Below, piece by piece: positions 3,213-30,322 of a DNA stretch of 64,000 bases. Positions within the stretch are counted from its first letter, which is position 1. Every line of letters starts with the position of its first letter. This stretch comes from a virus (taxonomy: Duplodnaviria; Caudoviricetes). Under the pieces are notes generated by a model that worked only from the letters and a program-made list of their open reading frames with translations, ran no database searches and was not told the origin of the DNA. The stretch lies in IMG/VR virus record IMGVR_UViG_2857083903_000001, positions 22,883-86,882 of that record; one strand, written 5' to 3'. A program made the translations under genes and the position numbers.

Positions 3213-3251
3213 AGGTGGTCCTCCTTCGCTGGCTGTCGTGGGGTGGGCGGG

Positions 3252-5812: not shown

Positions 5813-5934
5813 GTCGCCTCCTTTCAGGGGTTGACAGGCTGTAGTCGGTGGGCGATCCTCGCGCGTGCGCGTTGCGCGTGCGCATTGGACGGCTCGTCAC
5901 CCTCGTTTCCGGCGGGTGATGATGATGAATTCCG

Positions 5935-6159
5935 TCACTGGCTGTGAGCGCGGTAGAAGTCGTTGAGGTGTGCCGCAAGCCCGTTGGCGACCTTCGGGTC
6001 ACCGCTCTCGAGAGCGTCCTTGGCGAGCTTGCGGCACACGTTCGTCCAGAACGTGACGAGGTGCATCGGCCCGGCCGCGGCGGCCCTCGCCTGCGCCGCG
6101 TTGTAGTGCTCGGCCTGGTTGGCGCGGCGGGCCTGCTCGGCCTTCTGCGCGGCGTTCAC
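5935..6159 (-). CDS. Hypothetical protein
   Basis: GTGA overlap with the upstream gene; RBS GGAGG. Confidence 0.6.
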   Translation of the reverse strand: MNAAQKAEQARRANQAEHYNAAQARAAAAGPMHLVTFWTNVCRKLAKDALESGDPKVANGLAAHLNDFYRAHSQ

Positions 6160-6716
6160 AGCGCCTCCTGCTGGCCGAAGAAGTCACCGATGTGCGGGAC
6201 CGGGGCGGCCGTACTGCTGGGCTGGCCGGGGAACTGGAACGGCTGCGGGTTCACGTACTGCACGGCCGGCTGCCCGACCGTCGGGGGCTGGGCCGGCATG
6301 GTCGGCTGCACGCCGGTGAGGGTGTTCGTGCTGGTGGTGAGGGACTTGCCGACCTTGTCGTGGACGCTGGCCGCGGCAATCCCGAGGCGCTGCCTGCGGT
6401 CGTTCTTCTTCTCGAGTTCGCGGGCCCTGCGGGCGGGGAGTTCGACGACTTCCCGCAGGTAGACGGCGTTGACGGCTTCGGTTTCGGCGGCCGCCTTCTC
6501 GACGAGGCGGGCGACCTTGGTGAGGCGGCGGGCGACCTTGCGGGCGCGGCGGCCAGCGGAGCCGGTGCGGTCGCCGTCGATCTGGGTGTGGGCGAGGCGG
6601 GCCTGGATGATCTGGGCGAGCTGACGGAGCTGGGTGGCGTCGGTGGTGAACGTCTGCCGCTGCTCGTCGGTGAAGTCCCGCATGCCCTTCTGCGTCATCA
6701 GGGCTTCGATGTCCAT
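6156..6716 (-). CDS. Plasmid transfer protein, TraA-like
   Basis: RBS AAGGAG; coiled/basic 'ARRARKVARRL' segment; position between spd and traB. Confidence 0.55.
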   Translation of the reverse strand: MDIEALMTQKGMRDFTDEQRQTFTTDATQLRQLAQIIQARLAHTQIDGDRTGSAGRRARKVARRLTKVARLVEKAAAETEAVNAVYLREVVELPARRARELEKKNDRRQRLGIAAASVHDKVGKSLTTSTNTLTGVQPTMPAQPPTVGQPAVQYVNPQPFQFPGQPSSTAAPVPHIGDFFGQQEAL

Positions 6717-6736
6717 CGTTCTGGTCTCCTTCGTGT

Positions 6737-7657
6737 TTAGAGGTAGCCGCCGTCGGTGGTGGCGCGCTGCTTGCTGATGCGGGACAGGACGGTGCGCACG
6801 TATGCGGCGTCCGCTTCGATGCCGTGATGCGCGAGGCGCTCCACGATCTGCGGCGCTGATGCGGTCGGCTCCGCGTCACGGACGATGCGCACTGCGGCGG
6901 CCTTCGACAGGCCCTCGCTGCGCAGCGCCTCACCGAGGTGCTGCGGTGCCGCATCGCGGGTGATGCGCGGCGCGCCGGTGGGGGCGGGTGTCACGCGCGA
7001 CAGGGGCGCATCACGCTGCTCATCAGCGGTTTCACCGGCCGCATCGTTGCGGGCCGGGAGTTCGGGTGCGGCGGTCAGGGCCAGGGGCCGCATCCGGTGC
7101 AGCTCGCGGGCGCGGTCCTGCCGCATCACTTCGATGTCGAAGTCGGTGGACACTTCGCGCATCACGAGGTCGGCGTGCATCGTGCGGCGCCTCATCTCGA
7201 TGCGGTGCTGCGCCTCTTCGAAGACCATGCCGCGTTCCATGGCGGCGAGGGTGTGGAGTTCGTCGTGGGTGAGTGCGGCGGGGTCGCGCATGTCGGCGAG
7301 GGCGAGGGCCCAGACGGCTTTGGCGCCGAGGGGGAGGAAGGGGCCGGCGGCGGCCATGGCGAGGGATTCGCGGGCCATGCCGTGCATGGCGAGGAAGGTG
7401 GCGACGATGAGGAGGGTGGCCCAGCCGAGGGTGGGGACGATCCAGGTGCGGCCGGCGATTCGGAGGCCGCGGGCTTCGGCGATGATGACGCTGCCCCAGA
7501 TGATGTCGGCGCCGGCGGCGACGGTGACGCCGATGGGTCCGGTGCCGAGGAGGTCGACGAGGCTCCAGGTGGTCCAGGCCAGGGAGGCCAGGGACAGGAG
7601 TCCTGCCGGGTAGAGGAGCGGGCTGAGCCGCTTCTTGGTGGCCTGGACGGTGGTCAT
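6737..7657 (-). CDS. SpdB-like spread protein (4 TM + coiled coil + C-terminal HTH-like)
   Basis: Four N-terminal hydrophobic helices; 'AAYVRTVLSR' C-terminus; transfer operon. Confidence 0.65.
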   Translation of the reverse strand: MTTVQATKKRLSPLLYPAGLLSLASLAWTTWSLVDLLGTGPIGVTVAAGADIIWGSVIIAEARGLRIAGRTWIVPTLGWATLLIVATFLAMHGMARESLAMAAAGPFLPLGAKAVWALALADMRDPAALTHDELHTLAAMERGMVFEEAQHRIEMRRRTMHADLVMREVSTDFDIEVMRQDRARELHRMRPLALTAAPELPARNDAAGETADEQRDAPLSRVTPAPTGAPRITRDAAPQHLGEALRSEGLSKAAAVRIVRDAEPTASAPQIVERLAHHGIEADAAYVRTVLSRISKQRATTDGGYL

Positions 7658-7662
7658 GGGGT

Positions 7663-8008
7663 TCGGTGTCCTTTCGGGGGTTCAGGGGGTGGGGTCAGGT
7701 GTTGCGCCGGTTGGGGAGCCAGAGGCGACGCTTCGGCTGTGGCTCGGTCTGGGGCGCCTGGGCGGGTTCGGGCTGCTGTTCCAGGGCCTTGGCGATCCGG
7801 GAGAGGCTGTCGGCGATGCCAGTGAGGTGCCAGTTGGTGGCGCGCTGTTCCTTGACGAGGGCCATCAGCAGGTAGGGCATGGCGGCCTGGGGGGCGTCGG
7901 GGATGGGGAAGTCGTGCTTGGGGTGCTTGCCGTCGAGGGCCCTCTCGGCGCGGCGGATGAGTTCGGGGGTGTCCATCACGGGGATCGGTGTCCTTTCGGG
8001 GGTTCAGG
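7663..8008. repeat. 24-bp direct repeat flanking the 7695-7979 gene
   Basis: tcggtgtcctttcgggggttcagg at 7663-7686 and 7985-8008. Confidence 0.85.
7695..7979 (-). CDS. Hypothetical protein
   Basis: RBS AAAGGA; codon bias. Confidence 0.6.
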   Translation of the reverse strand: MMDTPELIRRAERALDGKHPKHDFPIPDAPQAAMPYLLMALVKEQRATNWHLTGIADSLSRIAKALEQQPEPAQAPQTEPQPKRRLWLPNRRNT

Positions 8009-18411: not shown

Positions 18412-19413
18412 GTGAAGATCCCGCCCGCGCTCCTCGCCACACTGAAGGACCGCGCCCACACCGACGGCAACCGGCTCACCCTCACCGGCCCCCGCCTGGA
18501 CCCGCGCACCTACCAGCAGATCAACGAGATCCTTGAAGCCGTCGGCGGCCGATGGACCTCCAGCGAGGGCGCCCACCTGTTCCCCACCGACGCCGACACC
18601 GCCCTGGCCCCCGTGTACGCCACCGGCAGCGTCGTCACCCTGCGGGAGAAGCGGCAGTCCGCCCAGTACTTCCCCACCCCGAAGCCCGTCGTCCAGCGGC
18701 TCATCGACCTCGCCAAGCTCACGCCGGGCGTGCGGGTGCTGGAGCCGTCCGCCGGCTCGGGCGCCATAGCCGGTGCCGTGACCGAGGCAGGCGCAACCGT
18801 GGACTGCATCGAGCGCGACCCTGGCTACGCCGCCGTCCTCGCCGACGCCGGACACCAGGTGCACGCCGCCGACTTCCTCACCGTGCCCGCCGAAGCTGCC
18901 TACGACCGGGTGGTGATGAACCCGCCCTTCACCAAGGGCGCCGACATGCAGCACGTCGAGCACGCGCTCAGGTTCCTCAAGCCCGACGGGCTGCTGGTGT
19001 CGGTCATGTCATGGACAGTGACCACCGAGTCCCGCGCCACCGCGAAGTTCCGGACGCTCGTCGAAGCCCGAGGCGGCACGGTCGAGGCGGTCGGCAAGGG
19101 CGCGTTCCGGGAGTCCGGCACCGACGTGCCCACCGTCATCGTCACCATTCCCGCCACCCGGCCGGCCGATGCGCAGCCCACCACCTGGCCCACCCGCAAG
19201 ACGCCGCCGGCCACGGAGTCAGAGTTCGAGGACCCGGCCGCTATCGCTGCCGAGATCATCGCCAGCCTGAAGGAAGCCACCGCCCAGTTCGAGAAGGTGG
19301 CCGCCGCCCTCGAACGGCCCGCACCGCCAACCCCGGCCCGCCCGGTGGACGTTGTGCCGCTTCCCCAGCGCACGCAGGACCAGCTGTTCTTCGACTTCGA
19401 CGGCGCCGCGTAG
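18412..19413 (+). CDS. SAM-dependent (probably N6-adenine DNA) methyltransferase
   Basis: QYFPTP, VLEPSAGSG, VMNPPF. Confidence 0.85.
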   Translation: MKIPPALLATLKDRAHTDGNRLTLTGPRLDPRTYQQINEILEAVGGRWTSSEGAHLFPTDADTALAPVYATGSVVTLREKRQSAQYFPTPKPVVQRLIDLAKLTPGVRVLEPSAGSGAIAGAVTEAGATVDCIERDPGYAAVLADAGHQVHAADFLTVPAEAAYDRVVMNPPFTKGADMQHVEHALRFLKPDGLLVSVMSWTVTTESRATAKFRTLVEARGGTVEAVGKGAFRESGTDVPTVIVTIPATRPADAQPTTWPTRKTPPATESEFEDPAAIAAEIIASLKEATAQFEKVAAALERPAPPTPARPVDVVPLPQRTQDQLFFDFDGAA

Positions 19414-19510
19414 TCGCGCCCCGGGGACTGCACCCCATGACCCGCGCACGGCTCGGCGGTGGAGCTATCACCGCCGAGCCGGCAGCCGAAACCCTACGAC
19501 TGGAGACCAC

Positions 19511-20797
19511 GTGAACCACACCGACCCGACCGCCCGGCCGCCGCTTCTCGCTGCTGCCCTCGCCCTGGAGTTGGACCGGGATGCTGCGTCCACCGGGGAA
19601 AGCGCTGATTACTGGCGCGGTATGACGCGAGCCGTGGAGCTGCTGCGCATCCTGAACCAGGACGAGCCTGCCGCGCCTGTGCTGGTGTCCCCGCCGCCGG
19701 ACCACGCCCCCCTCCGAGACCGTGTGGCTGCGGCTGCGCGCACGGTGTCGCTGCGCCTGGGCCCGAACGCGCTGGCTATGGCCGAGCGTGGGGAACCGAT
19801 CATCCTGTCTGGCGGCGAGGCCGACATGGTGGCCGACGCGGTCCTGGCGGTGCTGCCCGAGTCGGGCCGGGCCGCCACCCTGCTCGACGCAGCCGAGGCG
19901 ATCGACGCCGAGACCCGACAGTTGAAGGCCGATGGTGTGCTGGAGCCGGACAAGTTCCGTCCGTGCCGGGACGTAGCCGAGCAGCTGCGCCGTCTGGCCG
20001 CCGAGGCGCCCACCTGCACGCCTGGCCAGCCGTGCAACGCCGCCGTGATGCATCGCCTCGGCAACCTGGCCACAACCCACGGCCCGCACCTGTGGGTCGT
20101 GCAGCCGGGCATGGACCCCGTCCGCTGCCCCGGTACACCGATGCCGCAGTCTGAGGCGGGGGAGGCGCCCACTGTCACCTCCAACACTGATGGTGGTGTG
20201 ATCCTGCACCTGCCGGAGATCACGCACCTGGACACCCAGGTGTGGTCCGTCGACATCGGCCTCACCCCCGAGGGGCTGGCCGCGCTCCGGGCCGTGCTGA
20301 ACGGAGCCGAGGCACCCCAGCCCGACACCGAGGCGCGGCCCCGGCAGGCGTCGTGGCGTGTCGAGACCTATGACCCCGATGCGGGCGAGTGGGCGCCTGG
20401 GAGCCACTTCCTGTGCCGGGAGGCTGCTGTCGAGCGGCGGGACACCGCGACTGAGCGCGCCCCCCGGTGGGCGGACGACACCCCGGTTCAGCGGCGGATC
20501 GTCCGGGAGACGACCACCTACAGCGTGGAGCCGCCCAGCACTGGCGTGCCGACGTTGCTGCAGCTCGCTGATGCCGACCCCGAATACAGGGAGGTGCTGC
20601 TGAAGCGCGGCGACGAGATGACCGCCGTGTCCCAGCCTGCGGCAGACGGCGGCGAGGAGACGCCGCTCACGGTCACCACCCACCCGACCCGCTGCTGGCC
20701 GTGCATGACCGACGACTGCCCCACCGGGCCGCACCAGGTCGACGACATGCCGGACGTGGCCTGCGGCTGCGGATGCGTCAGCGAGGGGACGCGATGA
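19511..20797 (+). CDS. Mosaic phage hypothetical protein
   Basis: GTG after GGAG; ATGA overlap with the next gene. Confidence 0.6.
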
Positions 20798-21174
20798 CCC
20801 CCTACCGCGTCCTCGTCACCGGCTCGCGCACGTGGACCGATGTGGGCGCCGTCCAGCGGGCGCTCGCTCGAGCCGCCGAAGGTGTGCCCGCCGGCCGGGA
20901 GCTGGTCGTGGTTCACGGTGACTGTCCGCGTGGTGCTGACGCGATGGCCGATCTGTGGGCTCGCCAGTGCGGCGCCACCATCGAGCGGCATGCTGCGGAC
21001 TGGCGACCCAACGGTGTCTTCGACCGAGCGGCTGGCCCGCGCCGCAACGCCCGCATGGTCAGCCTCGGTGCCGACCTGTGCCTGGCGTTCATCCGTGACG
21101 GCAGCCGGGGCGCCACACACTGCGCCGACCTCGCCGAGAAGGCGGGCATCCCCGTCCGCCGCTACACCGCCTGA
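20794..21174 (+). CDS. SLOG/YspA-like (DUF2493) protein
   Basis: [37 protein letters not shown]. Confidence 0.8.
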
Positions 21175-21220
21175 CCACCCACACCTCCAGCGCGCGGCGC
21201 TCCGACAGATAGGAAACCTT

Positions 21221-21553
21221 ATGAAAGGTCCCCGCAGCGACAACCTCGCCGTCTCCCGGGCCGTCGGCGCCAACGTTGCCGCACTACGCAGAACGCGCGG
21301 CATCTCCCAGCGCACGCTCGCCAGCACCACGGAACAGACAGGCAAGTCAGTCGGGTTCAGCACCATCTGCCGCATGGAGAAGGCCGCCGCACCCGGTGCC
21401 GCCCCCGTAGCGGTCTACGTTGACGATGTCGTCTCCCTAGCCGCCGCCCTCGGCGTCACCGTTCAGCAGCTCATCACCACGCCCAATTGCAACGCCTGCA
21501 TGGACAGCCCGCCGCCCGGATTCGCCTGTCGCACCTGCGGAGCCACCGCCTAA
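21221..21553 (+). CDS. XRE HTH regulator with C-terminal zinc ribbon
   Basis: LRRTRGISQRTLA...ICRME; CNAC...CRTC. Confidence 0.75.
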   Translation: MKGPRSDNLAVSRAVGANVAALRRTRGISQRTLASTTEQTGKSVGFSTICRMEKAAAPGAAPVAVYVDDVVSLAAALGVTVQQLITTPNCNACMDSPPPGFACRTCGATA

Positions 21554-21816
21554 CCCCGCCCCTGTGGCCGCCTCCTTGTGCTCGGGGGCGGCCCCTGACC
21601 GGAAGGACTCCGATGACCCCCGCCGACTACGACTGTGACCCCCCAAGCCCTCGCATGGGCGTTCGCCAAAGTGCAGGCGTACATCGACCGGCTTGCCGAC
21701 TTCGAACAGCAAGCCAAAGCAACACGTGACCACGGTCACGCCCGTTGTGGGCCTGCGGACCAGACGAAACCCCCCACCCCCGAGACAGTAGAAGCAACAC
21801 ACCCAAGGAGAACCCC

Positions 21817-22023
21817 ATGAGCAAGGACATGACCATCGCCGAGATCGTCGCCATGGCCAAGGCTGAGGCCGCCAAGCACCCCAACCGTGACACCGACAGC
21901 CCCCGCAACATCAACATCGGAGTCCTCCACGGCGGGCAGCACGTCAGCAACGTCACCATCACCGGCGACTACATCCCCAACAACAAGACCGGCAAGAGCA
22001 GCAAGAAGGGGAAGAAGGCATGA
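21817..22023 (+). CDS. Small hypothetical protein
   Basis: RBS AAGGAG; ATGA overlap. Confidence 0.6.
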   Translation: MSKDMTIAEIVAMAKAEAAKHPNRDTDSPRNINIGVLHGGQHVSNVTITGDYIPNNKTGKSSKKGKKA

Positions 22024-22469
22024 CCGCTGCCGCGTTCGCCGCCACCTACGCCGCCCTCACCGCCGCCCACGAAGTCGGCGACCATTGGACTCAAGTCGAC
22101 GCCCAGGCTGCCGCCAAGGGACTACCGAACCGTGACGGCGCCCTCGCCTGCACCGAGCACGTCCTCACCTACACAGCCACCCAGGCCGCCGCCCTGTACG
22201 CCATCCACCGGGCCACCGGATTAAGACTGTCGTGGAGGCGGGCCGCCCTCGGGCTTGCCGTGTCCGCGGTCACGCACTACATCGCGGACCGGCAGGGCGG
22301 CCACTGGCAGGACAAACAGCCGCGCGGCATCGTCCGCCTCGCCGCCGCCACCGGGCACGCAGAATGGCTAGAGCGAGACCCGAACGCCGGGTACCTGATG
22401 GACCAGGCATGGCATAAGGGCTGGATCTTCATGGCCGCCCTGGTTGTCGCGGGCGGGCGTGAGCAGTGA
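22020..22469 (+). CDS. DUF3307-like membrane protein; contains a TTA codon
   Basis: HEVGDHWTQ, HYIAD, DQAWH; in-frame TTA at 22221. Confidence 0.65.
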   Translation: MTAAAFAATYAALTAAHEVGDHWTQVDAQAAAKGLPNRDGALACTEHVLTYTATQAAALYAIHRATGLRLSWRRAALGLAVSAVTHYIADRQGGHWQDKQPRGIVRLAAATGHAEWLERDPNAGYLMDQAWHKGWIFMAALVVAGGREQ

Positions 22470-22705
22470 ACGAGCCGACCGAGGAGGACCCGCACGCCTA
22501 CCTCTCCTACCTCATGACCGACGGGCAAGAGCAGGCGTGGGCCCGGCTCTACCGAGAGGCTGCCGAGTGGAAGCATGACAGGCGGTGGGAGCCGCCCAAG
22601 AAGTACGGGCTGCGGGCGGACGACTGGCCGCTCCCCGGCAAGGTCGTAGAGCCGGAGCCCTTCCGCCTCCGCCTCATCGCATCGGGCGGCGAGAGGCTCA
22701 TCTGA
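22466..22705 (+). CDS. Hypothetical protein
   Basis: GTGA overlap; ends before a hairpin. Confidence 0.5.
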   Translation: MNEPTEEDPHAYLSYLMTDGQEQAWARLYREAAEWKHDRRWEPPKKYGLRADDWPLPGKVVEPEPFRLRLIASGGERLI

Positions 22706-22717
22706 GGGCAACACACC

Positions 22718-22756
22718 ACGGTGCCCCCGCCTGACGGAAACAGGCGGGGGCACCGT
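22718..22756 (+). terminator. Strong hairpin terminator
   Basis: acggtgcccccgcctg / caggcgggggcaccgt. Confidence 0.7.
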
Positions 22757-23174
22757 CATGCAGACTACCCGGCACGCGCAGGCAGGCCGGAAAGGCATCA
22801 GGCGGGCCGGGATGGCGCGGGTGTGCTGGCGGCCGGTGTCGGGGCCCCTGGTGTAGGGCGGGAGGACACCGGCCGCAGTCAGACACGTTGCGAAGCAACC
22901 AGTAGGGGGCCGGTCCGATTGCCGCGCTGCGATTCCCCATAGGGAAACGGCTACCGAAACCGGTTACCCACCCGGTTTACCCGCAGACCCCCACCCGAGA
23001 AGCACCCCGACAGTAATTCGAACACCGCCACAGCACCCACAACCCCAGACAAGAGCCAGCACACGATCCCCAACAACCTGGCAGGCCAGGACCGCGCACA
23101 CCGATGATGCACCGGACAACTACCCGTTTTCCACGGAAGATTTTGAGGGGTAAACCTATGCTCACTACCTACAC

Positions 23175-23189
23175 TTGACTCTTAGTCAA
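23175..23189. promoter_or_regulatory. Palindromic operator candidate upstream of the MmyB-like gene
   Basis: ttgact-ctt-agtcaa in an AT-richer intergenic region. Confidence 0.45.
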
Positions 23190-23215
23190 CTCGCCTATCG
23201 GGGGGATACCGCAAA

Positions 23216-24031
23216 GTGAACAAGGACGCACTTAAAAAGTTCCTCAAGGAACGGCGCGACGGTATAGCACCCGAATCCCTCGGCCTTACCCGGCCCGCCG
23301 CACGACAGGGACGCCGCTCCCTCGGCCTCGCCCAGGACCAGGTCGACGAACTCCTGAACCGGGCCCGCAACACCTACCAGAAGCTCGAAGCCGGCCGGTA
23401 CAAGAACCCGCCCGTCGACCTGCTCCGCGACATCGCCTGCCTCTACCAGCTCAACGAGCAGGAGTGGACCGCGCTGTGCCGGTACGCCCGCGGCGAGGAC
23501 CCGCCCACACCCCTCTACGACACCACCGGCTATGCCGTACCCGCGGCCTGGGAGGACGCCGTCACCCGGGTCGTCGCCCCCGCCTACGTCACCGACGCCT
23601 CCTGGACCGTCCTCGCCCACAACCAGCCGTTTGAGGACCTGTTCATCAGGGAGCCGCCAGCGAACACCATGCGGTGGATGCTCGTCTCTGGGAGGGAGCA
23701 ACTCATCGACTGGGAAGGCGCGTGGGCGCCGCTCGTCATGCCCCAGCTCAAAGCGGCTCTCGCCCAACGCCCCCAGGATCAGGTCCTCCGCGGGATCGAA
23801 ACCGACGTCTGCGCCGACCCGGCATCCAGAGCCCTGTACGAGAAGGGTGGGGCGTCGATTCACCCGGACGGGCATGAACGGCCGATCCGGCACGCCGTGG
23901 AGGGCGATGGCTGGGTGACGATGTGCGCGGCGCAGCCCATGGCCTCCCCCGGCGCCCGGTTCATGATCCTCATTTTTCGGCCGGACACCCAGCCCCCCAT
24001 GGACCGGCCGCCGCTCCTGAAAGCCCCCTGA
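23216..24031 (+). CDS. MmyB-family regulator (XRE HTH + PAS-like ligand-binding domain)
   Basis: LKKFLKERR..PESLGL..RR..GL; YQKLEAGR; PAYVTDASWTVLAHN; NTMRWML. Confidence 0.85.
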   Translation: MNKDALKKFLKERRDGIAPESLGLTRPAARQGRRSLGLAQDQVDELLNRARNTYQKLEAGRYKNPPVDLLRDIACLYQLNEQEWTALCRYARGEDPPTPLYDTTGYAVPAAWEDAVTRVVAPAYVTDASWTVLAHNQPFEDLFIREPPANTMRWMLVSGREQLIDWEGAWAPLVMPQLKAALAQRPQDQVLRGIETDVCADPASRALYEKGGASIHPDGHERPIRHAVEGDGWVTMCAAQPMASPGARFMILIFRPDTQPPMDRPPLLKAP

Positions 24032-24162
24032 GCAGCCAGTCCACCCATCTATGCCCCGATTCGACGGGCAGTCGGGCACCATGCCAGTACGGCAGAGGGA
24101 AACGTTCAAGCCATCTGCCGTACTTTGACCGGACCAGGTCACGTGTGTCCAAGGGGGGACCC

Positions 24163-25209
24163 ATGCCCGTCCGTATCAGCCAGCCCGTCACCATCCTCGC
24201 CGCCCACAAAGTCACGACCGCGGAGATAGCCGACGACATCCGCGCCCACCACCCGGACCATCCGCGGCTCGGCGCGATCCTCCGCGTCATCGACAACTGC
24301 GGCGTCGACTCCCGCTACTTCACGCAGCCGCTCACCGCGGACACCATCACCGGCACCGCCCCCATCGCCGACCGTGTCCGCCGCGCGTTCGCCGACGGCC
24401 TGGCCATGGCCGAGCAGGCCGCCCGCCGCATCCTCGACGAGCAGGGCCTCCAACCCGCAGACGTCACCGGGCTCATCACCACACACGCCACCGGCTGGGC
24501 CGTCCCCAACCTGGACGTCCACCTGGTGCACCGGCTCGGCCTCAGCCCGACCATCCGCCGCACCGCCCTCACCACCACAGCCTGCGCCGGCGGAGCCCAC
24601 GCCCTCATCCGCGCCACCGAGCAAGCCCTCCTGCACCCCGGCTCCCACGTCCTCGTCGTCGCCGCCGAAGTCCTCTCCACCTCCTACAACCATGCCGACA
24701 CCGGCATCGAGCACATGATCTACAAAGCCCTGTTCGGGGACTCCGCGGCCGCGACCATCGTGTCCTCCGACCCGCACGGCCCCGGCCTCCAGGTCGACGC
24801 TGACGGCTTGTTCGAGTACGCCATGCCAGGCTCACTGGACTACTACGCCGGCCGCATCGACAGCACCGGCCTCCACTTCGACTCCACGAAGCAAGCCTCC
24901 GGCGGCGCGAAGCAGGCGATGCCCGCCGTCATCGACTGGCTCGACGGCCGCACCGTCGACACACCCGTCATCCACCCCGGCTCCCGGCCGATCATCCTCG
25001 ACACCGCGACCGCGCTCGGCATGACCGAGCACGATGCACGGCACTCCCTGGACACCCTCACCACCGAAGGCAACCTGGGTGGGGTAGCCGTACTCCGGGT
25101 CCTGGAACGCACCCACGACGACCCGCCCGCCGCCGGGGCGCAGGCACTGGTGGTGGCGTACGGGCCAGGATTCACCGTGTCCGCCCTCCACGGCGCCTGG
25201 ACCAACTGA
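24163..25209 (+). CDS. Type III polyketide synthase (PhlD/RppA-like)
   Basis: Catalytic Cys (ACAGG), His (IHPGS), Asn (EGNLG); LFGDSAAA; YGPGFT. Confidence 0.9.
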   Translation: MPVRISQPVTILAAHKVTTAEIADDIRAHHPDHPRLGAILRVIDNCGVDSRYFTQPLTADTITGTAPIADRVRRAFADGLAMAEQAARRILDEQGLQPADVTGLITTHATGWAVPNLDVHLVHRLGLSPTIRRTALTTTACAGGAHALIRATEQALLHPGSHVLVVAAEVLSTSYNHADTGIEHMIYKALFGDSAAATIVSSDPHGPGLQVDADGLFEYAMPGSLDYYAGRIDSTGLHFDSTKQASGGAKQAMPAVIDWLDGRTVDTPVIHPGSRPIILDTATALGMTEHDARHSLDTLTTEGNLGGVAVLRVLERTHDDPPAAGAQALVVAYGPGFTVSALHGAWTN

Positions 25210-25297
25210 GGTAGCCAGCCTGGCGCGCTGCCTGGCGGCATGCGCGCCGGCATCCAGCGGAGGGAACAACCGGCCGGATCAGCGGCACCGTAGAGGC

Positions 25298-25720
25298 ATG
25301 ACCACGCCCCCGCCCCAGGCCATCATCCACCGCATAGAACTTCCCATCGACGACCGCCCCCACGGCATCGACCTCACCGGCGAGATCCTCCACACCGCCA
25401 TCCGCCGCCCCAACGTCGTGGACGTCTGGTACCAGGCCCGCCCAGCCGGCATGGACCCGATGCGGCGCAGCTTCCAAGTCGTCGGCACCGGCCAGCCCAT
25501 CCCCACCCACCTCGGCTTCTACATCCATGCCGGCTACAAGGGCACCGCGATCACTCCCGACGGGCAACTGGTGTGGCACGTCCTCGAGAACTGGTGCCCG
25601 CACCCGAACATCGTCGAGACCACCGAACTGCGGGACAAGCCCGGCTATGGCACTGGCATCTGCGAGTGCTGCCCTGTCGTCCTCCGTGGTGATGGCAACG
25701 GCGGCTGGCTGCCGATCTGA
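25298..25720 (+). CDS. Hypothetical protein
   Basis: 'RSFQVVGTGQPIP...LVWHVLE'; RBS GAGG. Confidence 0.65.
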   Translation: MTTPPPQAIIHRIELPIDDRPHGIDLTGEILHTAIRRPNVVDVWYQARPAGMDPMRRSFQVVGTGQPIPTHLGFYIHAGYKGTAITPDGQLVWHVLENWCPHPNIVETTELRDKPGYGTGICECCPVVLRGDGNGGWLPI

Positions 25721-25762
25721 GCAGAGGGAACACGGCGGCGTTTCGTGCCCACACTGAAGGGC

Positions 25763-26527
25763 ATGCCTCAGCCCAAACCCGCACGAATACGCCGCACCCT
25801 CACCGCCCTCACGGCAGCCGACCTCACCGCGGCCGCGCTGCTCCTCGCCTCCGCCACCGACACCCGCGCCGCCACCACCACACCCGTCTACAAGGGCACC
25901 GGCTGGAAAGCGGAGACCGGCAGCGGCATCTTCAGCCTCTCGCCCGACCCATACACGATCGTCTTCGCCGACACCACAGCCCGGACCAAGCTCACCAGCT
26001 ACCTGACAGCGCCGGCCGCGCAGGTCACCGGCAGCGTCGGTGTCCCCGTCACCGTGTCGACCAGCCTCGACACCACACCCACCAGCGCCTGTCCGGCCCG
26101 GCACCGCATCGTCGTCCACTACCTGTACCGGCCCATGAACGTGAGCGGCATGAGCCAGGCCCTGCCCTGCCACAACACCGGTGACGGCTCCGCGTGGGGC
26201 GGCCACATCCTGATGGACTCGGAGTACTGGACGTCCAGCACGTGGTTCTCCACGAACGTCACCACGAACGAAGCCCGCCGCAAGGACGCCGTCACCCACG
26301 AACTCGGGCACATCCTCGGCTTGGACCACCCCAACACCGACCTGGACAAGGACGGAGTGGTGGAGAACGGCGAGTGCGTGAAGTCCACGGCCGGCCGCAA
26401 GCCGATCCTGTGCTCACCGAACCGTGGAGTCCCGGCCGCCACGGACGGCGGCAGGTTCACCACGGAGTACGACCTACCCGGCCTGCGGCAGATGCTCGCC
26501 AACTACTACCTACGGCAGACCACGTAA
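25763..26527 (+). CDS. Secreted zinc metalloprotease (metzincin/matrixin-like)
   Basis: Signal-like N-terminus; HELGHILGLDH. Confidence 0.8.
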   Translation: MPQPKPARIRRTLTALTAADLTAAALLLASATDTRAATTTPVYKGTGWKAETGSGIFSLSPDPYTIVFADTTARTKLTSYLTAPAAQVTGSVGVPVTVSTSLDTTPTSACPARHRIVVHYLYRPMNVSGMSQALPCHNTGDGSAWGGHILMDSEYWTSSTWFSTNVTTNEARRKDAVTHELGHILGLDHPNTDLDKDGVVENGECVKSTAGRKPILCSPNRGVPAATDGGRFTTEYDLPGLRQMLANYYLRQTT

Positions 26528-26744
26528 CCCAAGGAGCGTTGTCAGACCGGCATGCCACACTGGATACGCGCGCTGATCCCGGCCTCCTTGCCGGAGGTAG
26601 GCGTGAGATCAACCCGGTGGGGGTGGCCCCGGCCACCCACCGATCGGCACCGGGCCTTCGCTGGCCTAGCTAGCCAGTGTTCGCCTTCCGCCCTGCCACG
26701 CACGTCCCCCGTCGTGGCAGGGCGGACGTACGTTCCGGCCCGGT

Positions 26745-27089
26745 CTACTGCTCCAGCATCCCCAGCTCGGTGTCCGGACGGCACACCGTGCACGCCGACA
26801 CCCCCGCCGCCAACGCCTGCCGGGCCACGTCGGCGTCGATGCCCTTCGACCGCTGCCCGGCCATCCGGCAGTCCCCCACATGCACCCCGACCGGCGGCCG
26901 GTCACGATTCAGCCCGTAGTCCAGCAGCCACGCCGGCCGCTCTGCCTCCCGTACGGCTGCGGCGCGGGCCTGCTCGGCTTCTCGCTGGCGGGCCTGGGTG
27001 AGCTTGGCGTCGATCCGGGTGACCCACATGGCGTGCCAGGTCCGCAGGGTTTCGAGGCGGGGCACATCCTCCGGCAGGTCGTCGAACAC
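26745..27089 (-). CDS. DUF6233-like protein
   Basis: VHVGDC...ACTVCRPDTELG. Confidence 0.7.
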   Translation of the reverse strand: MFDDLPEDVPRLETLRTWHAMWVTRIDAKLTQARQREAEQARAAAVREAERPAWLLDYGLNRDRPPVGVHVGDCRMAGQRSKGIDADVARQALAAGVSACTVCRPDTELGMLEQ

Positions 27090-27167
27090 ATGACCGATTG
27101 TATGGGTGTGAAAAAAGAGCCCGCCACCTGGGACGAACGCCAGGACGGCAGGCTCTCGAGAGCACGC

Positions 27168-27800
27168 TCAGTACGACGGGAGGACTACGGTTGCGCGCCG
27201 GGCCAGGGCGGCAGCTTCCCGCCGGGCGGGCGGGCCGTCGTTCACCCGCAGCACCTCCACCAGCCGGTCGGTAGGCACGACGGGCACCTCCCGCACCGTG
27301 AACCCGGACCCGGCCACCGGAGCGTTGTGCACGGCGATGACCGGCTGCACCGGCACCCCAAGAGCACGGGCGATCAGATCCGTCTCGTACAGGACGCTCC
27401 GCAGGTCCCTGCTGCGGTTCGCCGGCTTGTGACCGGCCTCCCCATGCCACAGCGTGCCGCCCGCAGCGTGGACGAGGTACCGGCTGGACCACAGCTTCGA
27501 GTCGACCAGGAACACACGGGCACCGGGGCTGACGAGGACGTGGTCGGCGTTGGCGCTGCGGGCGCCGGGTATCGCCCGGTCGTGCAGCACTTTCCACCCC
27601 ACGGCCTCCAGCGGCTGGAGCAGGGCGGCGGTGCGCCGCTCCCCCTCGGCCCCGGCGTTACAGGCGGCAGCGTGGGCGTCCGCGCGCCGTGCGGCGGGGC
27701 TGAGCCCCAGGGCGGCGAGGAAACGCCTCCACACGCCTCTGCGGGCGGCCTGGCGCTGCTCCTCACCCCACCGGGACACTGACCCACCAGCCGCACTCAC
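27168..27800 (-). CDS. NERD-domain nuclease-like protein
   Basis: GAEGE, VLHDRAIP, NADHVLV, VDSK. Confidence 0.8.
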   Translation of the reverse strand: MSAAGGSVSRWGEEQRQAARRGVWRRFLAALGLSPAARRADAHAAACNAGAEGERRTAALLQPLEAVGWKVLHDRAIPGARSANADHVLVSPGARVFLVDSKLWSSRYLVHAAGGTLWHGEAGHKPANRSRDLRSVLYETDLIARALGVPVQPVIAVHNAPVAGSGFTVREVPVVPTDRLVEVLRVNDGPPARREAAALARRATVVLPSY

Positions 27801-28099
27801 GCGGCACTCGGAGCGGTACGGCGGACGCCCTGGAAGCGGCGTGCCCAGGTCCGGAGCCGCCGCTTCGTGTCATCGCCTCCCCCGCCCTTCCACCACAGCC
27901 AGCCGCTCACCGCAGCGAAGCCAGCCGACATGGATGCGGACACTGGACTCCCGTCCACGACACCGCCTAGCGCGATGACACTGTTAGCCAGGCACATCAG
28001 GCCGTTGATCTTGTGCAAGGGAAGGCGTCGGGTAAACAGCGAGGCCAGGCCGCATACGACGACAGCTATACCGATTCCCCAGAGGACGAACGACAGCAT
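27797..28099 (-). CDS. Small membrane protein
   Basis: Three hydrophobic segments; coupled. Confidence 0.6.
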   Translation of the reverse strand: MLSFVLWGIGIAVVVCGLASLFTRRLPLHKINGLMCLANSVIALGGVVDGSPVSASMSAGFAAVSGWLWWKGGGGDDTKRRLRTWARRFQGVRRTAPSAA

Positions 28100-28335
28100 C
28101 AGAGTGCCTTCCTTGTCTTAACGGTTCGGGCGTGGGCGCGGCGGCGCCGGTGGTAGCGGACAGCCCGCCATCCCGCCTCCACAGCCATGGCGAGAGCGAC
28201 GGCGACGATCGTGCAGACGATGACCGCACCCGGCGACAACACACGGGCGCCGATCAGAGTCAGCCATCCCCAGGCAGTACCCACGGCTATGACGCCGACG
28301 AGGACGCTCTGGGCGAGGAGCGGGGGTATTCGCAC
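28099..28335 (-). CDS. Small membrane protein
   Basis: GTG after AGGAGG; two TM segments. Confidence 0.55.
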   Translation of the reverse strand: MRIPPLLAQSVLVGVIAVGTAWGWLTLIGARVLSPGAVIVCTIVAVALAMAVEAGWRAVRYHRRRRAHARTVKTRKAL

Positions 28336-28360
28336 GGGCCCTCCTGGGCGTTGTTCGGTG

Positions 28361-29017
28361 TCAGGACGCCCGGCTTTGCGGGGCTGGGCTGTCGGGAACG
28401 CTGGAGAGCGCGGCAAGGACCTGCTGGCCCGCGGCCCGCTTCGCAGGAATGTGCAGCCACCGTTTCGCCAGCTCCGTCACCCGACGCACCCCACCCGCAT
28501 CCACCGGCACGGTCCCGGCCTGCAAGGCGCGCTGCTTCCACCGCTGCCTAGACGTGCGGAGGTTGGTGCACTGTCGGCGTTCCTCGTCCAGCAGCGCTTC
28601 CGTCTCCAAGTGAGCGGCGATCAGCCCGCGGAGTCCTTCCCGCAGCCGGTCGCCCTCGCTGTAGTCGAGGCCGCCTTTGCGTTCGGCCCGGCCGATCAGG
28701 TTGAACATCTGCTCCAGCGTGGGCTGCCCGCCGGCCGGGCTGCTGGGTTCGCGGTAGGTGGTGACGGTGACGATCCCGGCCTGGCTGGCGACACCGACGG
28801 CTTGGGCGCGGTCGTTGACGTGGAGCCGTTTGAAGACTTCGGCCATCTGGGTTTTGACGGTGTTTTCACTGGTGTTGAGGTGGTGGGCGATGAGCCGGTT
28901 GGAGTGGCCGTTGGCGGCGAGTTGGAGGACTTGGAGTTGTCGGGGTGTGAGTGTGTCGGGGTGTGGGCGGGGCCCGTCACTGGACTGCGACGGGCCCACC
29001 TGAACGGGTGCGGTCAC
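28361..29017 (-). CDS. LuxR-type HTH protein
   Basis: LTPRQLQVLQLAANGHSNRLIA...TVKTQ. Confidence 0.8.
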   Translation of the reverse strand: MTAPVQVGPSQSSDGPRPHPDTLTPRQLQVLQLAANGHSNRLIAHHLNTSENTVKTQMAEVFKRLHVNDRAQAVGVASQAGIVTVTTYREPSSPAGGQPTLEQMFNLIGRAERKGGLDYSEGDRLREGLRGLIAAHLETEALLDEERRQCTNLRTSRQRWKQRALQAGTVPVDAGGVRRVTELAKRWLHIPAKRAAGQQVLAALSSVPDSPAPQSRAS

Positions 29018-29415
29018 TCGCTACTCCCCTCGTTGGCGAGGGCGAGCAGGACTGCGGCGTGGCAGGGCAGTGACTCGGCGCACCAGCACATGAGGTCCCG
29101 ACCCGCGAGCTGCTTAGGGACCGCCACCCACAGTTGCGGGCGGTGGTTGACGTAGATCTCGAACAACTCGACCGCCAGGGTGTGGGCGTCACGCTGGTCG
29201 TTGGCGAGAATGAAGTCCCGCAGTCCCTTAGGTCGCTGCTGCTGCGTGTGGCCTGCCCAGTTCACGGCCCACCCGGTGCCGGTGTCCGTCTTGATGACGA
29301 CCCAGGGGTTACCCCACTGACTGCCACGTCCGACGTAGACCGGCTTGCGGCCCTGAGCGTCGAGGGGCGCCGTCCACCCGGCCGTACGGCGGCGCTGGAT
29401 ACGGGTCGGGCTCAT
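29014..29415 (-). CDS. DUF4326 protein
   Basis: YVGRGSQWGNPW...LAGRDLMCWC..PCHA. Confidence 0.8.
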   Translation of the reverse strand: MSPTRIQRRRTAGWTAPLDAQGRKPVYVGRGSQWGNPWVVIKTDTGTGWAVNWAGHTQQQRPKGLRDFILANDQRDAHTLAVELFEIYVNHRPQLWVAVPKQLAGRDLMCWCAESLPCHAAVLLALANEGSSE

Positions 29416-29870
29416 GCGGTGGTCTCCTTGCGGCTGCGGCGGGTGAACGGGAGCCGGGCACCAGGACGACCCAGCGGGCGCCGCACAGACACCGGCCGTA
29501 GCACGGCCTGTACGGGCCCGTGAGCCGTCGGGGCCGGGTCGGGGTGCCACACCTCCACCCACACCCCGTCCAGCCGCCACACCGCCGCCGTACGCCCCGG
29601 CACCGTGAAGTCCAGGACGGGCAGCAGATCCTCCCCGCACGGGTTCGCACGGATCGTCAGGAACGAAGCCTGCCGGGCCGCGAACGCGGTCAACGCGGCT
29701 GCCGGGTCGGGGCCGGAGAGTTGGGCGGACACGTGGAGCAGTCCGTCCTGGGCGCGGGTGATGGTCCAGCCGGTGAGGGTTTCGGGTCGCTGGCTCTGGC
29801 TGTCCCGCCAGGCTTTGATGGTGGCGTGCTTGGCGGCGAGGGCGTCGGGATGCAGGGTGAGGGCGGTCAC
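29412..29870 (-). CDS. Hypothetical protein
   Basis: Coupled ORF. Confidence 0.55.
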   Translation of the reverse strand: MTALTLHPDALAAKHATIKAWRDSQSQRPETLTGWTITRAQDGLLHVSAQLSGPDPAAALTAFAARQASFLTIRANPCGEDLLPVLDFTVPGRTAAVWRLDGVWVEVWHPDPAPTAHGPVQAVLRPVSVRRPLGRPGARLPFTRRSRKETTA

Positions 29871-30322
29871 AGGGCGCCACCCTCGGAAGCGACGGACGTC
29901 GGAACGAGGGCACGGCGGCGCATGTCGGCGGCGACGTCGCAGTGGCAGTTCATCCAGACGGTGTCGCGGCTCCCGTGCTCGGGGCAGTGCGCGACAAGTT
30001 CGTCAGCCTCGGTGGTGAGGGAGTTCGTTCGAGTAGCGGCCAGCTCGGCACGGAGGCGACGGGCTTCGGTGACAAGGATCTTCGCCACCTCGGGGCGCAT
30101 CGCGGCGATGTACTCGGCGTCAGCCATTCGCCAGGGCGCATCCGCGACGGTCTGGCGGGTGGTGCAGCCGTCTTCGTCGATGTACTCGGTTTTCACCCAG
30201 TAGACGGGGCGAGGATCGTGCTCGTTGGGCGGGAGTTCGACGGCTGTCCAGGTGCCGGGGGTGGCGGCGTCCGCGCGGGCTTCGATGCCGTCGAGCTGCT
30301 GGTCGGTGAGCGGGCTGGTCAC
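29867..30322 (-). CDS. Ead/Ea22-like phage protein
   Basis: IEARADAATPGTW...DAEYIAAM. Confidence 0.6.
   Translation of the reverse strand: MTSPLTDQQLDGIEARADAATPGTWTAVELPPNEHDPRPVYWVKTEYIDEDGCTTRQTVADAPWRMADAEYIAAMRPEVAKILVTEARRLRAELAATRTNSLTTEADELVAHCPEHGSRDTVWMNCHCDVAADMRRRALVPTSVASEGGAL

Follow-up and report, generated by a model that had tools for sequence, protein, structure and literature searches.

INTRODUCTION

A type III polyketide synthase (PKS) is reportedly already present in the record of pZL12, where it is said to have gone unexplained for want of a cluster. Among characterized enzymes, germicidin synthase (Gcs) is encoded by a stand-alone gene, uses acyl-ACP starters and makes a small autoregulatory pyrone; we know of no Gcs that is paired with an MmyB-type regulator. 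LuxI/LuxR and arbitrium (AimP/AimR), in which mobile DNA carries a signal gene beside the gene of a ligand-binding transcription factor, offer a functional analogy only, and to our knowledge there is no communication system on record for the virus group considered here.

In the accessible part of the 2015 study of pSLE1, a type III PKS is noted and left unexplained, its cluster missing and its neighbours giving no indication of natural-product biosynthesis; it stands there as a lone curiosity, and neither the MmyB-type regulator next to it nor the mobile pair is recognized in that part (PMC4487206). In the available portion of a 2023 prophage survey, the only prophages with T3PKS are those that were detected on plasmids. 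For the regulator family, the accessible sections of the MltR study report a crystal (3PXP) with myristic acid in a buried cavity, a model of MltR as a dimer on a palindrome with roughly 10-bp spacing, a divergent position relative to the target for 15 of the 16 MmyB-type regulators of S. coelicolor, and neighbours that are antibiotic-related or SDR genes; activation by a ligand is proposed (PMC3406030). Neither the pairing of an MmyB-type regulator with a type III PKS nor the mobility of such a cassette was found in the searchable literature; the supplementary tables of PMC10023795 may already name some of the plasmids.

In this report, we analyse such a pair in a window of 64,000 nucleotides from a tailed virus (IMG/VR record IMGVR_UViG_2857083903_000001, positions 22,883 to 86,882). 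An earlier note on this DNA had proposed that the two genes form a small-molecule signalling module.

RESULTS

A regulator and a type III PKS in tandem on a phage-plasmid

The replicon is a separate 86,882-bp contig on which genes for tail, tape-measure, major capsid, scaffold and portal proteins are combined with genes for DnaB, DciA, a ParA-like protein and an integrase. It thus has a complete set of tailed-phage structural genes as well as plasmid replication and partition functions, on a replicon of its own within the range of about 85-95 kb, and is a pZL12-like phage-plasmid; the earlier note, too, had placed the pair on a plasmid-phage. Neither a terminal repeat nor an overlap turned up on the contig, and many plasmids of 85-94 kb have capsid proteins with 64-92% identity to its own. 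Genes on this contig and in the retrieved contexts were called with a GC3-based ORF filter, by which small genes may be missed. The pair consists of two genes on the same strand:

23216..24031, + strand: regulator with an XRE-HTH and an MmyB-type (PAS-like) ligand-binding domain; 271 aa, GTG start (Pfam, AF2, Foldseek)
24163..25209, + strand: stand-alone type III PKS; 348 aa, Cys141/His271/Asn304 (profile and 1U0M alignment)

The long ORF of the PKS opens at 23923, but the ATG at 24163, with AAGGGGGGA ahead of it, is the plausible start and gives 348 aa. Scoring 80.2 bits with Chal_sti_synt_N (cut-off 27), the protein passes the curated threshold of the chalcone/stilbene synthase superfamily; FAE1_CUT1_RppA also matches (29.0 against 27), and neither C-terminal profile rises above its cut-off (Chal_sti_synt_C, 17.7 against 27; ACP_syn_III_C, 26.5 against 26.6). 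The nearest solved structure by sequence is THNS/RppA of S. coelicolor (1U0M, E 1.4e-42), which has the same triad and size, aligns over residues 7-347 and is about one third identical by eye; unlike it, the PKS described here has no partner P450. Second comes Gcs (3V7I, E 5.2e-38), with which the PKS has ExLSTxY and GNxGG in common, although identity is low and the N-terminal 65 residues align weakly. Cys141 (codon 24583), His271 (24973) and Asn304 (25072) fall on the catalytic positions of 1U0M, and the triad is invariant in 25/25 aligned homologues; the intact Cys-His-Asn triad described earlier is thereby confirmed, and type III PKS activity is predicted for the protein. As to the HPGS and GNLGG variants, previously taken as hints of an atypical product, H-P-G and G-N-x-G-G are invariant across the PKS clade; the latter is not unique to it, germicidin synthase 3V7I having GNRGG where the PKS has GNLGG. 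The type III PKSs on the host chromosome are 29% identical to the cassette PKS.

For the regulator, Pfam returned HTH_31 at 27.0 bits (cut-off 27), HTH_3 at 26.4 against 23, and MLTR_LBD (PF17765) at 46.3 bits against 26.3 (E 6e-12), so that the N-terminal Xre-type HTH and the C-terminal MmyB-type PAS-like domain of the MmyB-like (MltR) architecture are both present. Because a sequence search of the PDB gave no match at E <= 0.01, a fold search was needed. The AlphaFold2 model (pLDDT 91.3) has MltR (3PXP) as its top PDB match in Foldseek (E 4.8e-9, 281 columns, 14% identity), with PAS domains ranked after it; the two-domain architecture and the fold are thus those of MmyB/MltR (PF17765; 3PXP), and the XRE and PAS-like regulator that had been noticed directly before the PKS is confirmed. 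By analogy with MltR, the regulator is probably a dimer. An alignment of 25 homologues contains 46 invariant columns. The host chromosome has no second homologue (tblastn, 1e-5), and the regulator is therefore considered to be dedicated to the cassette. PHROGs holds no family for either protein, and neither was matched by PADLOC, a blank scan on which membership of an anti-phage defence family was rejected for both.

Non-coding elements around the pair

Several non-coding elements were located, the first of them upstream of the pair:

22718..22756, + strand: terminator-like hairpin closing the upstream operon; 16-bp perfect stem, 7-nt loop, no T-tract
23085..23215, + strand: conserved regulatory region of the cassette, ~130 bp (alignment of 28 upstream regions)
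23103, + strand: conserved block GATGATGCACC (upstream alignment)
23127, + strand: conserved block TTTTCCACGG (upstream alignment)
23139-23156, + strand: T-rich/A-rich dyad GATTTTGAGGGGTAAACC (upstream alignment)
23170-23175, + strand: -10-like TACACT (upstream alignment)
23175..23189, no strand assigned: palindrome TTGACTCTTAGTCAA right after the -10-like hexamer, a weakly supported candidate operator
23200, + strand: putative ribosome-binding GGGGGGA (upstream alignment)
24086..24124, no strand assigned: inverted repeat AGTACGGCAGAGGG / CCATCTGCCGTACT that extends across the -35 region in the putative PKS promoter
24097..24126, + strand: putative PKS promoter, with GGGAAAC around -35 and a -10-like GTACTTT at 24120-24126, 43 nt before the start

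The upstream hairpin is strong (-41.2 kcal/mol, z -5.5; equalled by 0/200 shuffles) and is omitted by a consensus terminator scan because it lacks a T-tract; with that reservation, it corresponds to the upstream terminator that had been read from the sequence. The conserved region before the regulator was delimited from 28 upstream regions whose encoded proteins are 37-80% identical, and the two arms of its dyad co-vary among loci. The blocks within 23085-23215 may serve as promoter, operator and ribosome-binding elements. A small ORF of 18-24 codons, readable in this region in several loci, was rejected by eye, its frame differing in loci L003 and L010, and the conservation is accordingly read as conservation at the DNA level.

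The palindrome on which the earlier note had remarked is present, but it is statistically weak. When up to two mismatches are allowed, the window contains 2 matches where 0.45 would be expected, and 8/100 shuffles reach 2; its TGAC-N5-GTCA form is kept, besides the window, only in L004 and L009. With conservation in only these two other loci and no recurrence on the replicon, it was rejected as a shared operator. The inverted repeat before the PKS (-21.1 kcal/mol, z -2.9) has a core, ACGGCA-N21-TGCCGT, that is kept only in the subclade of the window (L004-L009). Six candidate operator or promoter motifs were followed across the replicon and none recurs elsewhere on it.

In 27/33 loci a -10-like motif stands 43-61 nt before the PKS start, whereas 1.9% of random 80-nt windows contain it; the motif was defined post hoc from the same sequences in which it was counted. 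In the PKS promoter region, this -10-like element is conserved and a consensus -35 is missing; activator-dependent promoters keep the -10 and lack a consensus -35. A consensus sigma-70 scan of 22400-25800, with a consensus that is uninformative for Streptomyces, gave no promoter. The PKS promoter carries no second copy of the dyad that precedes the regulator gene, which weakens the case for direct control of the PKS. Control through TTA (bldA) codons was rejected: in 31/33 loci neither gene contains one, the exceptions being the PKS of L028 and the regulator of L030.

Linkage, co-inheritance and selection

In 30/30 PKS-bearing plasmids of 84-103 kb the regulator gene immediately precedes the PKS gene and shares its strand, and the arrangement is the same in pZL12 and in 29/29 genome loci tested, with only the C-terminal half aligning in L032. 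The same cassette on the same kind of replicon is found as pZL12.99/pZL12.100 in pZL12 (GQ919031; PKS 57.9%, regulator 53% identical) and in pSLE1 of S. leeuwenhoekii (PKS 75.5%, regulator 72% identical). The regulator and PKS trees have 15/29 splits in common, against 0.2 with shuffled labels, and the pairwise identities of the two proteins are correlated (r = 0.82). The co-occurrence for which the earlier note had asked for a survey is strict, and the genes are largely co-inherited; since adjacent genes share their history, co-inheritance is no evidence that a product fits its receptor.

There is no internal stop in any of the 33 loci, and both genes have dN/dS values under 1 in all 16 pairs compared (0.04-0.55 overall; 0.12-0.55 for the PKS). 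Both genes are under purifying selection. Two observations count against reading the pair as a self-contained module. Homologues of the regulator (51-53% identity) occur in six plasmids where no PKS match reaches E <= 1e-40, of which CP108296 was inspected, and the tandem layout on one strand, seen in all loci, differs from the divergent layout usual for MmyB-like regulators.

Distribution and mobility

On the replicon, the neighbours of the cassette are a PHROG 'membrane protein', a 79-aa ORF, DUF7352, a metalloprotease-like ORF, DUF6233 and NERD. No tailoring or export gene is among them, in agreement with what had been seen in the window. In a plasmid of S. janthinus, homologues of 22466-22705 and of DUF7352 flank a LuxR gene and small ORFs, with no cassette, and the cassette thus appears to occupy a variable accessory slot of the phage-plasmid. 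A more distant three-gene relative has a fabG-type reductase gene that adjoins the regulator and is divergent from it.

Among Streptomyces/Kitasatospora plasmids with a capsid like that of this replicon, 25/33 carry the cassette and 8/33 do not; it is missing from the three plasmids with the nearest capsid (92% identity). Retention in 25/33 exceeds the expectation for a neutral passenger and so leaves room for a role in the phage-plasmid. The association suggested earlier stands to this extent, but the cassette is not phage-specific. Carriers make up about 7% of sampled Streptomyces species, mostly with the cassette amid ordinary chromosomal genes, and in 26/29 species-genome loci no other gene of this replicon is nearby (10/10 at +-20 kb; 16/19 at ~+-9 kb). 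No tailoring set recurs in the genome flanks, which differ from genome to genome, and sharing at the nucleotide level with pSLE1 and other plasmids is limited to the cassette (window ~23170-25209). Chromosomal homologues thus consist of this two-gene cassette as well, set among unrelated genes; the refuting outcome named in the earlier note, homologues that are for the most part pieces of chromosomal clusters, was not observed. On a tree of 66 PKSs there are at least 9 switches between contigs of 84-109 kb and contigs of >140 kb, 8 of them forced by well-supported branches; with shuffled labels, the mean number of switches is 22.

Product class of the PKS

The Cys-rich stretch EFCSLCY of 1U0M corresponds to EVLSTSY in the PKS and to EALSTTY in Gcs. 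Tyr224 and Cys106/168/171 of RppA form a set that we take to be the cavity residues for malonyl-CoA priming and pentaketide folding; in the PKS, Tyr224 is replaced by Gly (32/33 loci) and the others by Ala/Thr/Ser, Leu/Ile and Ser/Val/Ile. With the Cys-rich stretch and Tyr224 replaced, identity with THNS/RppA was rejected. PhlD, the NCBI name of most homologues, was treated as an annotation label only, and this identity was rejected in turn, as the NCBIfam scan gave no PhlD model and no phl-type neighbours (phlACB) occur in any context examined. DpgA (3,5-dihydroxyphenylacetyl-CoA synthase) was also discarded, NF042429 scoring 97.6 bits against a cut-off of 425. A few aligned residues, read with background structure-function data, suggest a small lipophilic polyketide and not tetrahydroxynaphthalene as the product.

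DISCUSSION

In all surveyed loci, the type III PKS is accompanied by an MmyB-type regulator and by control DNA of its own, which the present analysis adds to the earlier sightings. It also adds the repeated moves of a 2.1-kb unit between phage-plasmids and chromosomes, as judged from the PKS tree, and the maintenance of this unit by selection in roughly 7% of sampled Streptomyces species. On balance, we favour the view that the two genes make up a mobile and self-contained biosynthetic cassette of ~2.1 kb (~23085-25209), a 'moron' in a variable slot of the phage-plasmid, and we consider this somewhat better than an even bet. The MmyB-type regulator would bind dyad DNA upstream of its own gene, at the PKS promoter, or both. 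A hydrophobic, fatty-acid-like ligand on the regulator, acting as an activator, would then switch on the PKS promoter, and the PKS would join an acyl starter and malonyl-type extenders into a small, untailored, membrane-permeant alkyl-pyrone, resorcinol or phloroglucinol. The polyketide itself would be the output, a trait that may benefit any carrier cell and that would be unconnected to the phage-plasmid life cycle.

The earlier note had gone further and proposed synthase-receptor signalling, in which a diffusible polyketide would be the ligand of the regulator and, by autoinduction, would let carrier density tune lysis, transfer or host development. We hold this to be unlikely. The synthase is strictly paired with a ligand-binding regulator, the regulator is dedicated to the cassette (tblastn 1e-5 on the host chromosome), its upstream region is conserved along with the synthase, the absence of tailoring and export genes points to a small and probably permeant product, and the cassette is kept in 25/33 plasmids with a related capsid, all of which suit a signal. 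However, 26/29 loci lie in chromosomal surroundings without phage genes, so the function cannot depend on the phage; the plasmids with the nearest capsid (92% identity) lack the cassette; and co-inheritance, expected of adjacent genes, is silent on the fit between product and receptor. As for the tuning of lysis or transfer, no sign of it was seen, none of the six candidate cis-motifs recurring on the replicon. The cassette has no homology with LuxI/LuxR and AimP/AimR, it also occurs outside phages, and its candidate motifs offer no link from receptor to life cycle.

A precursor-sensing valve, in which the regulator would sense a host lipid or acyl-CoA and the PKS product would be an overflow or stress metabolite (an antioxidant or a membrane-active phenolic lipid), seems to us just as unlikely. 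It differs from the preferred reading only in the ligand and is inseparable from it by sequence, and it leaves the enrichment on phage-plasmids without a reason. It draws on the active-site stretch of the PKS, which resembles germicidin synthase, on the divergent fabG-type reductase beside the regulator of the three-gene relative and, in the accessible sections of the MltR study, on the fatty acid contained in the sole solved member of the MmyB/MltR family and on the link of the family to SDR genes in S. coelicolor (PMC3406030). More doubtful still is a portable polyketide autoinducer-receptor unit that would be exchanged repeatedly between phage-plasmids and chromosomes and would either sense carriers of related elements among hyphae or manipulate germination and development.

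The accessory slot of the cassette and its frequency in the phage-plasmid family would also suit a chemical weapon or shield acquired by lysogenic conversion, with a polyketide that inhibits rival bacteria, the germination of neighbours' spores or superinfecting phages, and antiphage small molecules of Streptomyces are on record in the available part of PMC10023795. The same part of that source, however, describes prophages as being without biosynthetic gene clusters for known antiphage molecules; PADLOC was blank for both proteins and no resistance or immunity gene accompanies the cassette, so that we regard this explanation as improbable. A decaying passenger, a functionless remnant that hitch-hikes, would agree with the absence of the cassette from 8/33 related plasmids but is scarcely credible given intact frames in 33/33 loci, an invariant catalytic triad, dN/dS of 0.04-0.55 and conserved non-coding blocks.

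As a small, cloneable two-gene system, the cassette provides a handle on the ligands of the MmyB family, on the purpose of untailored bacterial type III PKSs and on the benefit that temperate actinophages derive from biosynthetic genes. If the product proved to be the ligand of the regulator, it would represent a new chemical class of signalling by mobile elements, and the autoinducer-receptor reading, if true, would provide a polyketide counterpart of arbitrium and acyl-homoserine-lactone signalling.

Genes and proteins of the cassette

The MmyB-type regulator gene and the type III polyketide synthase (PKS) gene form, with their control DNA (about 23085-25209), a cassette with the following features.

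Features of the cassette and its upstream border (window coordinates)
22718-22756: hairpin after the stop of the preceding ORF; perfect 16-bp stem, -41.2 kcal/mol, z -5.5
23103: conserved block 1, CATGATGC
23127: conserved block 2, GTTTTC(C/T)ACGG
23139-23156: T-rich/A-rich dyad
23170-23175: -10-like hexamer of the regulator, TAnnCT
23175-23189: palindrome, just 3' of that hexamer
23216-24031, + strand: MmyB-type regulator, 271 aa; Xre-type helix-turn-helix and MmyB-like ligand-binding domain PF17765
24089-24121: inverted repeat ACGGCA-N21-TGCCGT spanning the putative PKS promoter region, in the window's subclade
24163-25209, + strand: type III PKS, 348 aa; Chal_sti_synt_N 80.2 bits, cut-off 27

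Both proteins named in the earlier note are present, with PF17765 at 46.3 bits against a cut-off of 26.3 and the synthase domain likewise above its threshold, the palindrome lies where it had placed it, and the hairpin lies upstream, where it had noted a terminator. Its view of the PKS as an intact Cys-His-Asn enzyme also stands, since Cys141, His271 and Asn304 align to the catalytic residues of THNS 1U0M, and these are unvaried across 25 homologues; its start, however, is corrected, the ORF being open from 23923 and the credible start being the ATG at 24163, preceded by AAGGGGGGA.

The confidently predicted structure of the regulator (pLDDT 91.3, from an alignment of 25 sequences) has as its top structural match, spanning both domains, MltR 3PXP (E 4.8e-9, 14% identity); PAS sensor domains rank next. 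By sequence, the regulator had no match in the PDB, nor any in the host chromosome, C1, by tblastn at a cut-off of 1e-5. According to the available text of PMC3406030, family members usually lie beside, and divergent from, SDR or antibiotic-related genes, whereas the regulator and PKS genes of the cassette are in tandem. The same paper describes myristic acid inside a closed cavity of the MltR crystal and proposes that the MmyB/MltR family links antibiotic and fatty-acid metabolism.

Of the solved structures, THNS/RppA 1U0M is closest to the PKS (E 1.4e-42), with germicidin synthase 3V7I next (E 5.2e-38). Where THNS has EFCSLCY, the cassette PKS has EVLSTSY and Gcs has EALSTTY; a Gly stands at the position of RppA Tyr224 in 32 of 33 loci; and the PKS shares with Gcs a Gly following the catalytic Asn+1 (GNLGG versus GNRGG). 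Given the functional roles that we take these aligned positions to have from the THNS/RppA/CHS literature, tetrahydroxynaphthalene is an unlikely product, and the enzyme probably has a roomy cavity. NCBI labels most homologues 'PhlD', a name without backing from any PhlD model in the NCBIfam scan; DpgA, the sole type III PKS model listed by that scan, reached 97.6 bits, well short of its cut-off of 425. Two further host type III PKS genes (C1 672211-673239 and 5751489-5752538) show 29% identity to the cassette PKS.

Control DNA

The 130 nt 5' of the regulator were aligned across 28 fetched loci of the cassette, after removal of five divergent ones (L029, L031-L034). Several blocks stay conserved even though the proteins of the aligned loci are only 37-80% identical: blocks 1 and 2, the dyad, the -10-like hexamer and the ribosome-binding site of the regulator. 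The dyad arms co-change across loci, reading GTTTTTG-N4-CAAAAAC in L027, AGTTCTTC-N4-GAAGAACT in L028 and CTTT-N6-AAAG in the L011 group, and about one helical turn separates the half-sites, the same spacing that the MltR dimer model predicts for the family (available text of PMC3406030). The palindrome is kept in L004 and L009 only.

Upstream of the PKS, 27 of 33 loci have a -10-like GTA(C/G)NTT 43-61 nt 5' of the start, compared with 1.9% of 80-nt windows drawn at random from these loci, a descriptive count as the motif was defined from those very loci; near-variants are present in L018 and L024. The motif lacks a consensus -35, and an AGGGG(A/G)AAC-like stretch stands in its place. We regard this element as a putative activator-dependent promoter.

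Pairing and co-inheritance of regulator and PKS

In the phage collection the PKS matched pZL12 only (57.9% identity), where it is annotated pZL12.100 and a 'transcriptional regulator', pZL12.99, lies just upstream. PLSDB holds the PKS (E <= 1e-40) in 53 plasmids, 51 from Streptomyces and two from Kitasatospora. On the co-occurrence of the pair, a question raised by the earlier note, the regulator lies directly 5' on the same strand in all 30 PKS plasmids of 84-103 kb. The gap between the two matches is 80-540 bp, with one of 955 bp (Streptomyces sp. W75 plasmid), and in the W9 plasmid the pair straddles the record origin. A PKS of the cassette clade (45-80% identity) was found in 30 of 400 genomes of other Streptomyces species; taking one locus each from 29 of these 30, and leaving out the genome copies G274:C18, G274:C16, G143:C1, G167:C84 and the truncated G040:C86, the regulator is again directly 5' on the same strand in 29/29, that of L032 aligning over its C-terminal half only.

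TTA codons are almost absent from the two genes across 33 loci. Pairwise identities of regulator and PKS are correlated (r = 0.82, 528 pairs), and their FastTree topologies have 15 of 29 splits in common, where shuffled labels give 0.2 on average and 3 at most (L032 excluded). The two genes are thus co-inherited; co-inheritance is not evidence of molecular co-adaptation, because adjacent genes have a common history.

Related arrangements were also seen. On the S. melanogenes linear plasmid NZ_CP108296.1, the locus 5001-7685 holds a regulator homologue (53% identity) without a PKS; next come a small ORF, DUF3995, a sigma factor and an SRPBCC protein. Five larger plasmids (176-220 kb) carry the regulator at 51-53% identity with no PKS match at E <= 1e-40. 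A three-gene cousin on the 939-kb S. chartreusis plasmid NZ_CP108821.1 (1929-6086) has an MmyB-like regulator with a divergently oriented fabG-type reductase on one side and, after the regulator, an MBL-fold hydrolase and a type III PKS; its PKS and regulator are 46% and 41% identical to those of the window. A block-2 variant lies 5' of its regulator too, and CP108098 and CP108397 have the same 1.1-1.2 kb regulator-PKS gap. The sampled genome G143 has a second MmyB-like + MBL pair adjoining its cassette. Another plasmid-borne type III PKS paired with a small-molecule receptor, of a different clade (39% identity), lies on the S. anulatus plasmid NZ_CP109342.1 (4995-6636), where it overlaps convergently with an ScbR-family autoregulator-receptor gene beside P4-type primase genes.

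Carriers and settings of the cassette

The replicon that holds the window, C2, is the second contig of its genome (86,882 bp, 68.7% G+C, beside a 6.34-Mb chromosome of 71.9% G+C); the window covers its bases 22883-86882. It has a complete siphovirus-type structural module (minor tail proteins, tape measure, major tail, major capsid, decoration, scaffold, portal) and also encodes DnaB, DciA, a ParA-like ATPase, a tyrosine integrase, two WhiB-like proteins, RusA, Rad52, methyltransferases and dCTP deaminase; because the structural module and plasmid-type genes occur together, it is a phage-plasmid of the pZL12 kind. A search of C2 for a terminal repeat or end overlap found none. The cassette's neighbours on C2 are a PHROG 'membrane protein', a 79-aa ORF, DUF7352, a metalloprotease-like ORF, DUF6233 and NERD; as the earlier note stated, there is no recognisable tailoring enzyme or exporter among them.

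Other genes of C2 merit a note (window coordinates). Directly 3' of the PKS (25298-26527) lie the DUF7352 protein and a 260-aa ORF with a signal-like N-terminus and an HExxH motif, all of whose metallopeptidase profile matches are below or near threshold. On the far side of the slot, a block of DUF6233, a NERD nuclease-related protein and a GerE/LuxR-type regulator (26745-29017, - strand) keeps its synteny in the NEAU-sy36 plasmid and, in part, in genome G026. Two large ORFs of 762 and 691 aa (924-5812, - strand) matched nothing in Pfam or PHROG and lack a counterpart in the S. janthinus relative, and an SLOG/YspA-like (PF10686) protein in the early-gene block (20701-21174) has a homologue in the S. 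janthinus plasmid.

The C2 capsid protein matched 34 plasmids (E <= 1e-20). Among the 33 Streptomyces/Kitasatospora plasmids with such a capsid, 25 have the PKS and eight do not, the latter including the three closest capsids (92% identity: S. janthinus and two S. chartreusis plasmids) and the S. ambofaciens ATCC 23877 plasmid; a C2-like capsid is absent from five PKS-bearing plasmids of 88-102 kb. Of the 400 sampled genomes, 43 have the capsid, and only four of these also have the cassette. On the S. janthinus plasmid, the place between homologues of the cassette-flanking genes (22466-22705, 54% identity; DUF7352, 66%) is taken by a LuxR-family gene and small ORFs, so the cassette occupies a variable accessory slot.

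With window 19000-30000 as megablast query against plasmids, nucleotide homology was limited to the cassette, and that to pSLE1 (query 4221-6210, window 23220-25209) ends exactly at the PKS stop. Other C2 genes were absent from all ten genome contexts viewed at +-20 kb, which were picked for a gene deep inside large contigs and are thus biased away from plasmids; in the remaining 19 (about +-9 kb), C2-like phage-plasmid genes occur in three (G026, G139, G369) and are absent from 16. By Pfam, the flanks are ordinary chromosomal genes that differ between genomes (sigma factor/YCII, NRPS, TetR+SDR+acyltransferase, DNA ligase, GNAT+isochorismatase, OMT+ABC transporter, P450, acyl-CoA dehydrogenase), with no recurrent tailoring set; the homologues are therefore not mostly fragments of chromosomal clusters, the case that the earlier note had set against its proposal. 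Nor is the cassette a phage-plasmid invention. At one locus (G303:C288, 8235-14926) it lies immediately beside an RppA-type type III PKS (29.5% identity), a P450 and an acyl-CoA dehydrogenase, so that type III PKS genes of two different clades stand back to back.

Among the best 120 PKS homologues in a large protein collection, 34 are on contigs of 84-109 kb, 32 on contigs above 140 kb (up to 10 Mb) and 53 on contigs too short to be informative, P0105 being left unclassed. A FastTree of the 66 informative PKSs, with contig size as a proxy for replicon type, requires at least nine label changes, eight of them forced by well-supported branches (shuffled mean 22; 0/500 shuffles as low); we infer no direction of transfer, because of this proxy and an insecure root.

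Discussion

The earlier note proposed a signalling module. That the PKS product feeds back on its own regulator is plausible; the full proposal, in which it would also tune lysis, transfer or development of the element, appears unlikely, as such tuning is without sequence support and is weakened by the existence of the cassette outside phages. None of six candidate cis-motifs from the cassette recurs elsewhere on C2, so there is no hint in the sequence of the regulator reaching life-cycle genes, with the proviso that the true operator may differ. A precursor-sensing variant of the module is likewise improbable, and we consider a role as weapon or shield quite doubtful. Decay of the cassette is scarcely credible: both frames are stop-free in 33/33 loci, and in 16/16 pairs dN/dS (Nei-Gojobori) ranges over 0.12-0.55 in the PKS and 0.04-0.48 in the regulator, values that are, if anything, overestimates because GC3 is saturated.

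A PKS on pSLE1 is already in print (available text of PMC4487206) and that on pZL12 is public as a database record; type III PKSs only in prophages on plasmids were remarked earlier (main text of PMC10023795), and the MmyB family itself is already known. In the searchable literature we found no description of the MmyB-type identity of the PKS partner, the invariant pairing, the conserved control DNA, the chromosomal copies or the repeated replicon switches, and the available portions of PMC4487206, PMC10023795, PMC9903846 and PMC3406030 do not describe the regulator-PKS pair.

The best-supported reading, which we favour somewhat over even chances, is that the cassette is a ligand-gated minimal biosynthetic module that would make a small lipophilic polyketide and confer it on any carrier, and that pZL12-like phage-plasmids may repeatedly have picked up or shed as a moron, that is, as accessory genes carried by a phage.
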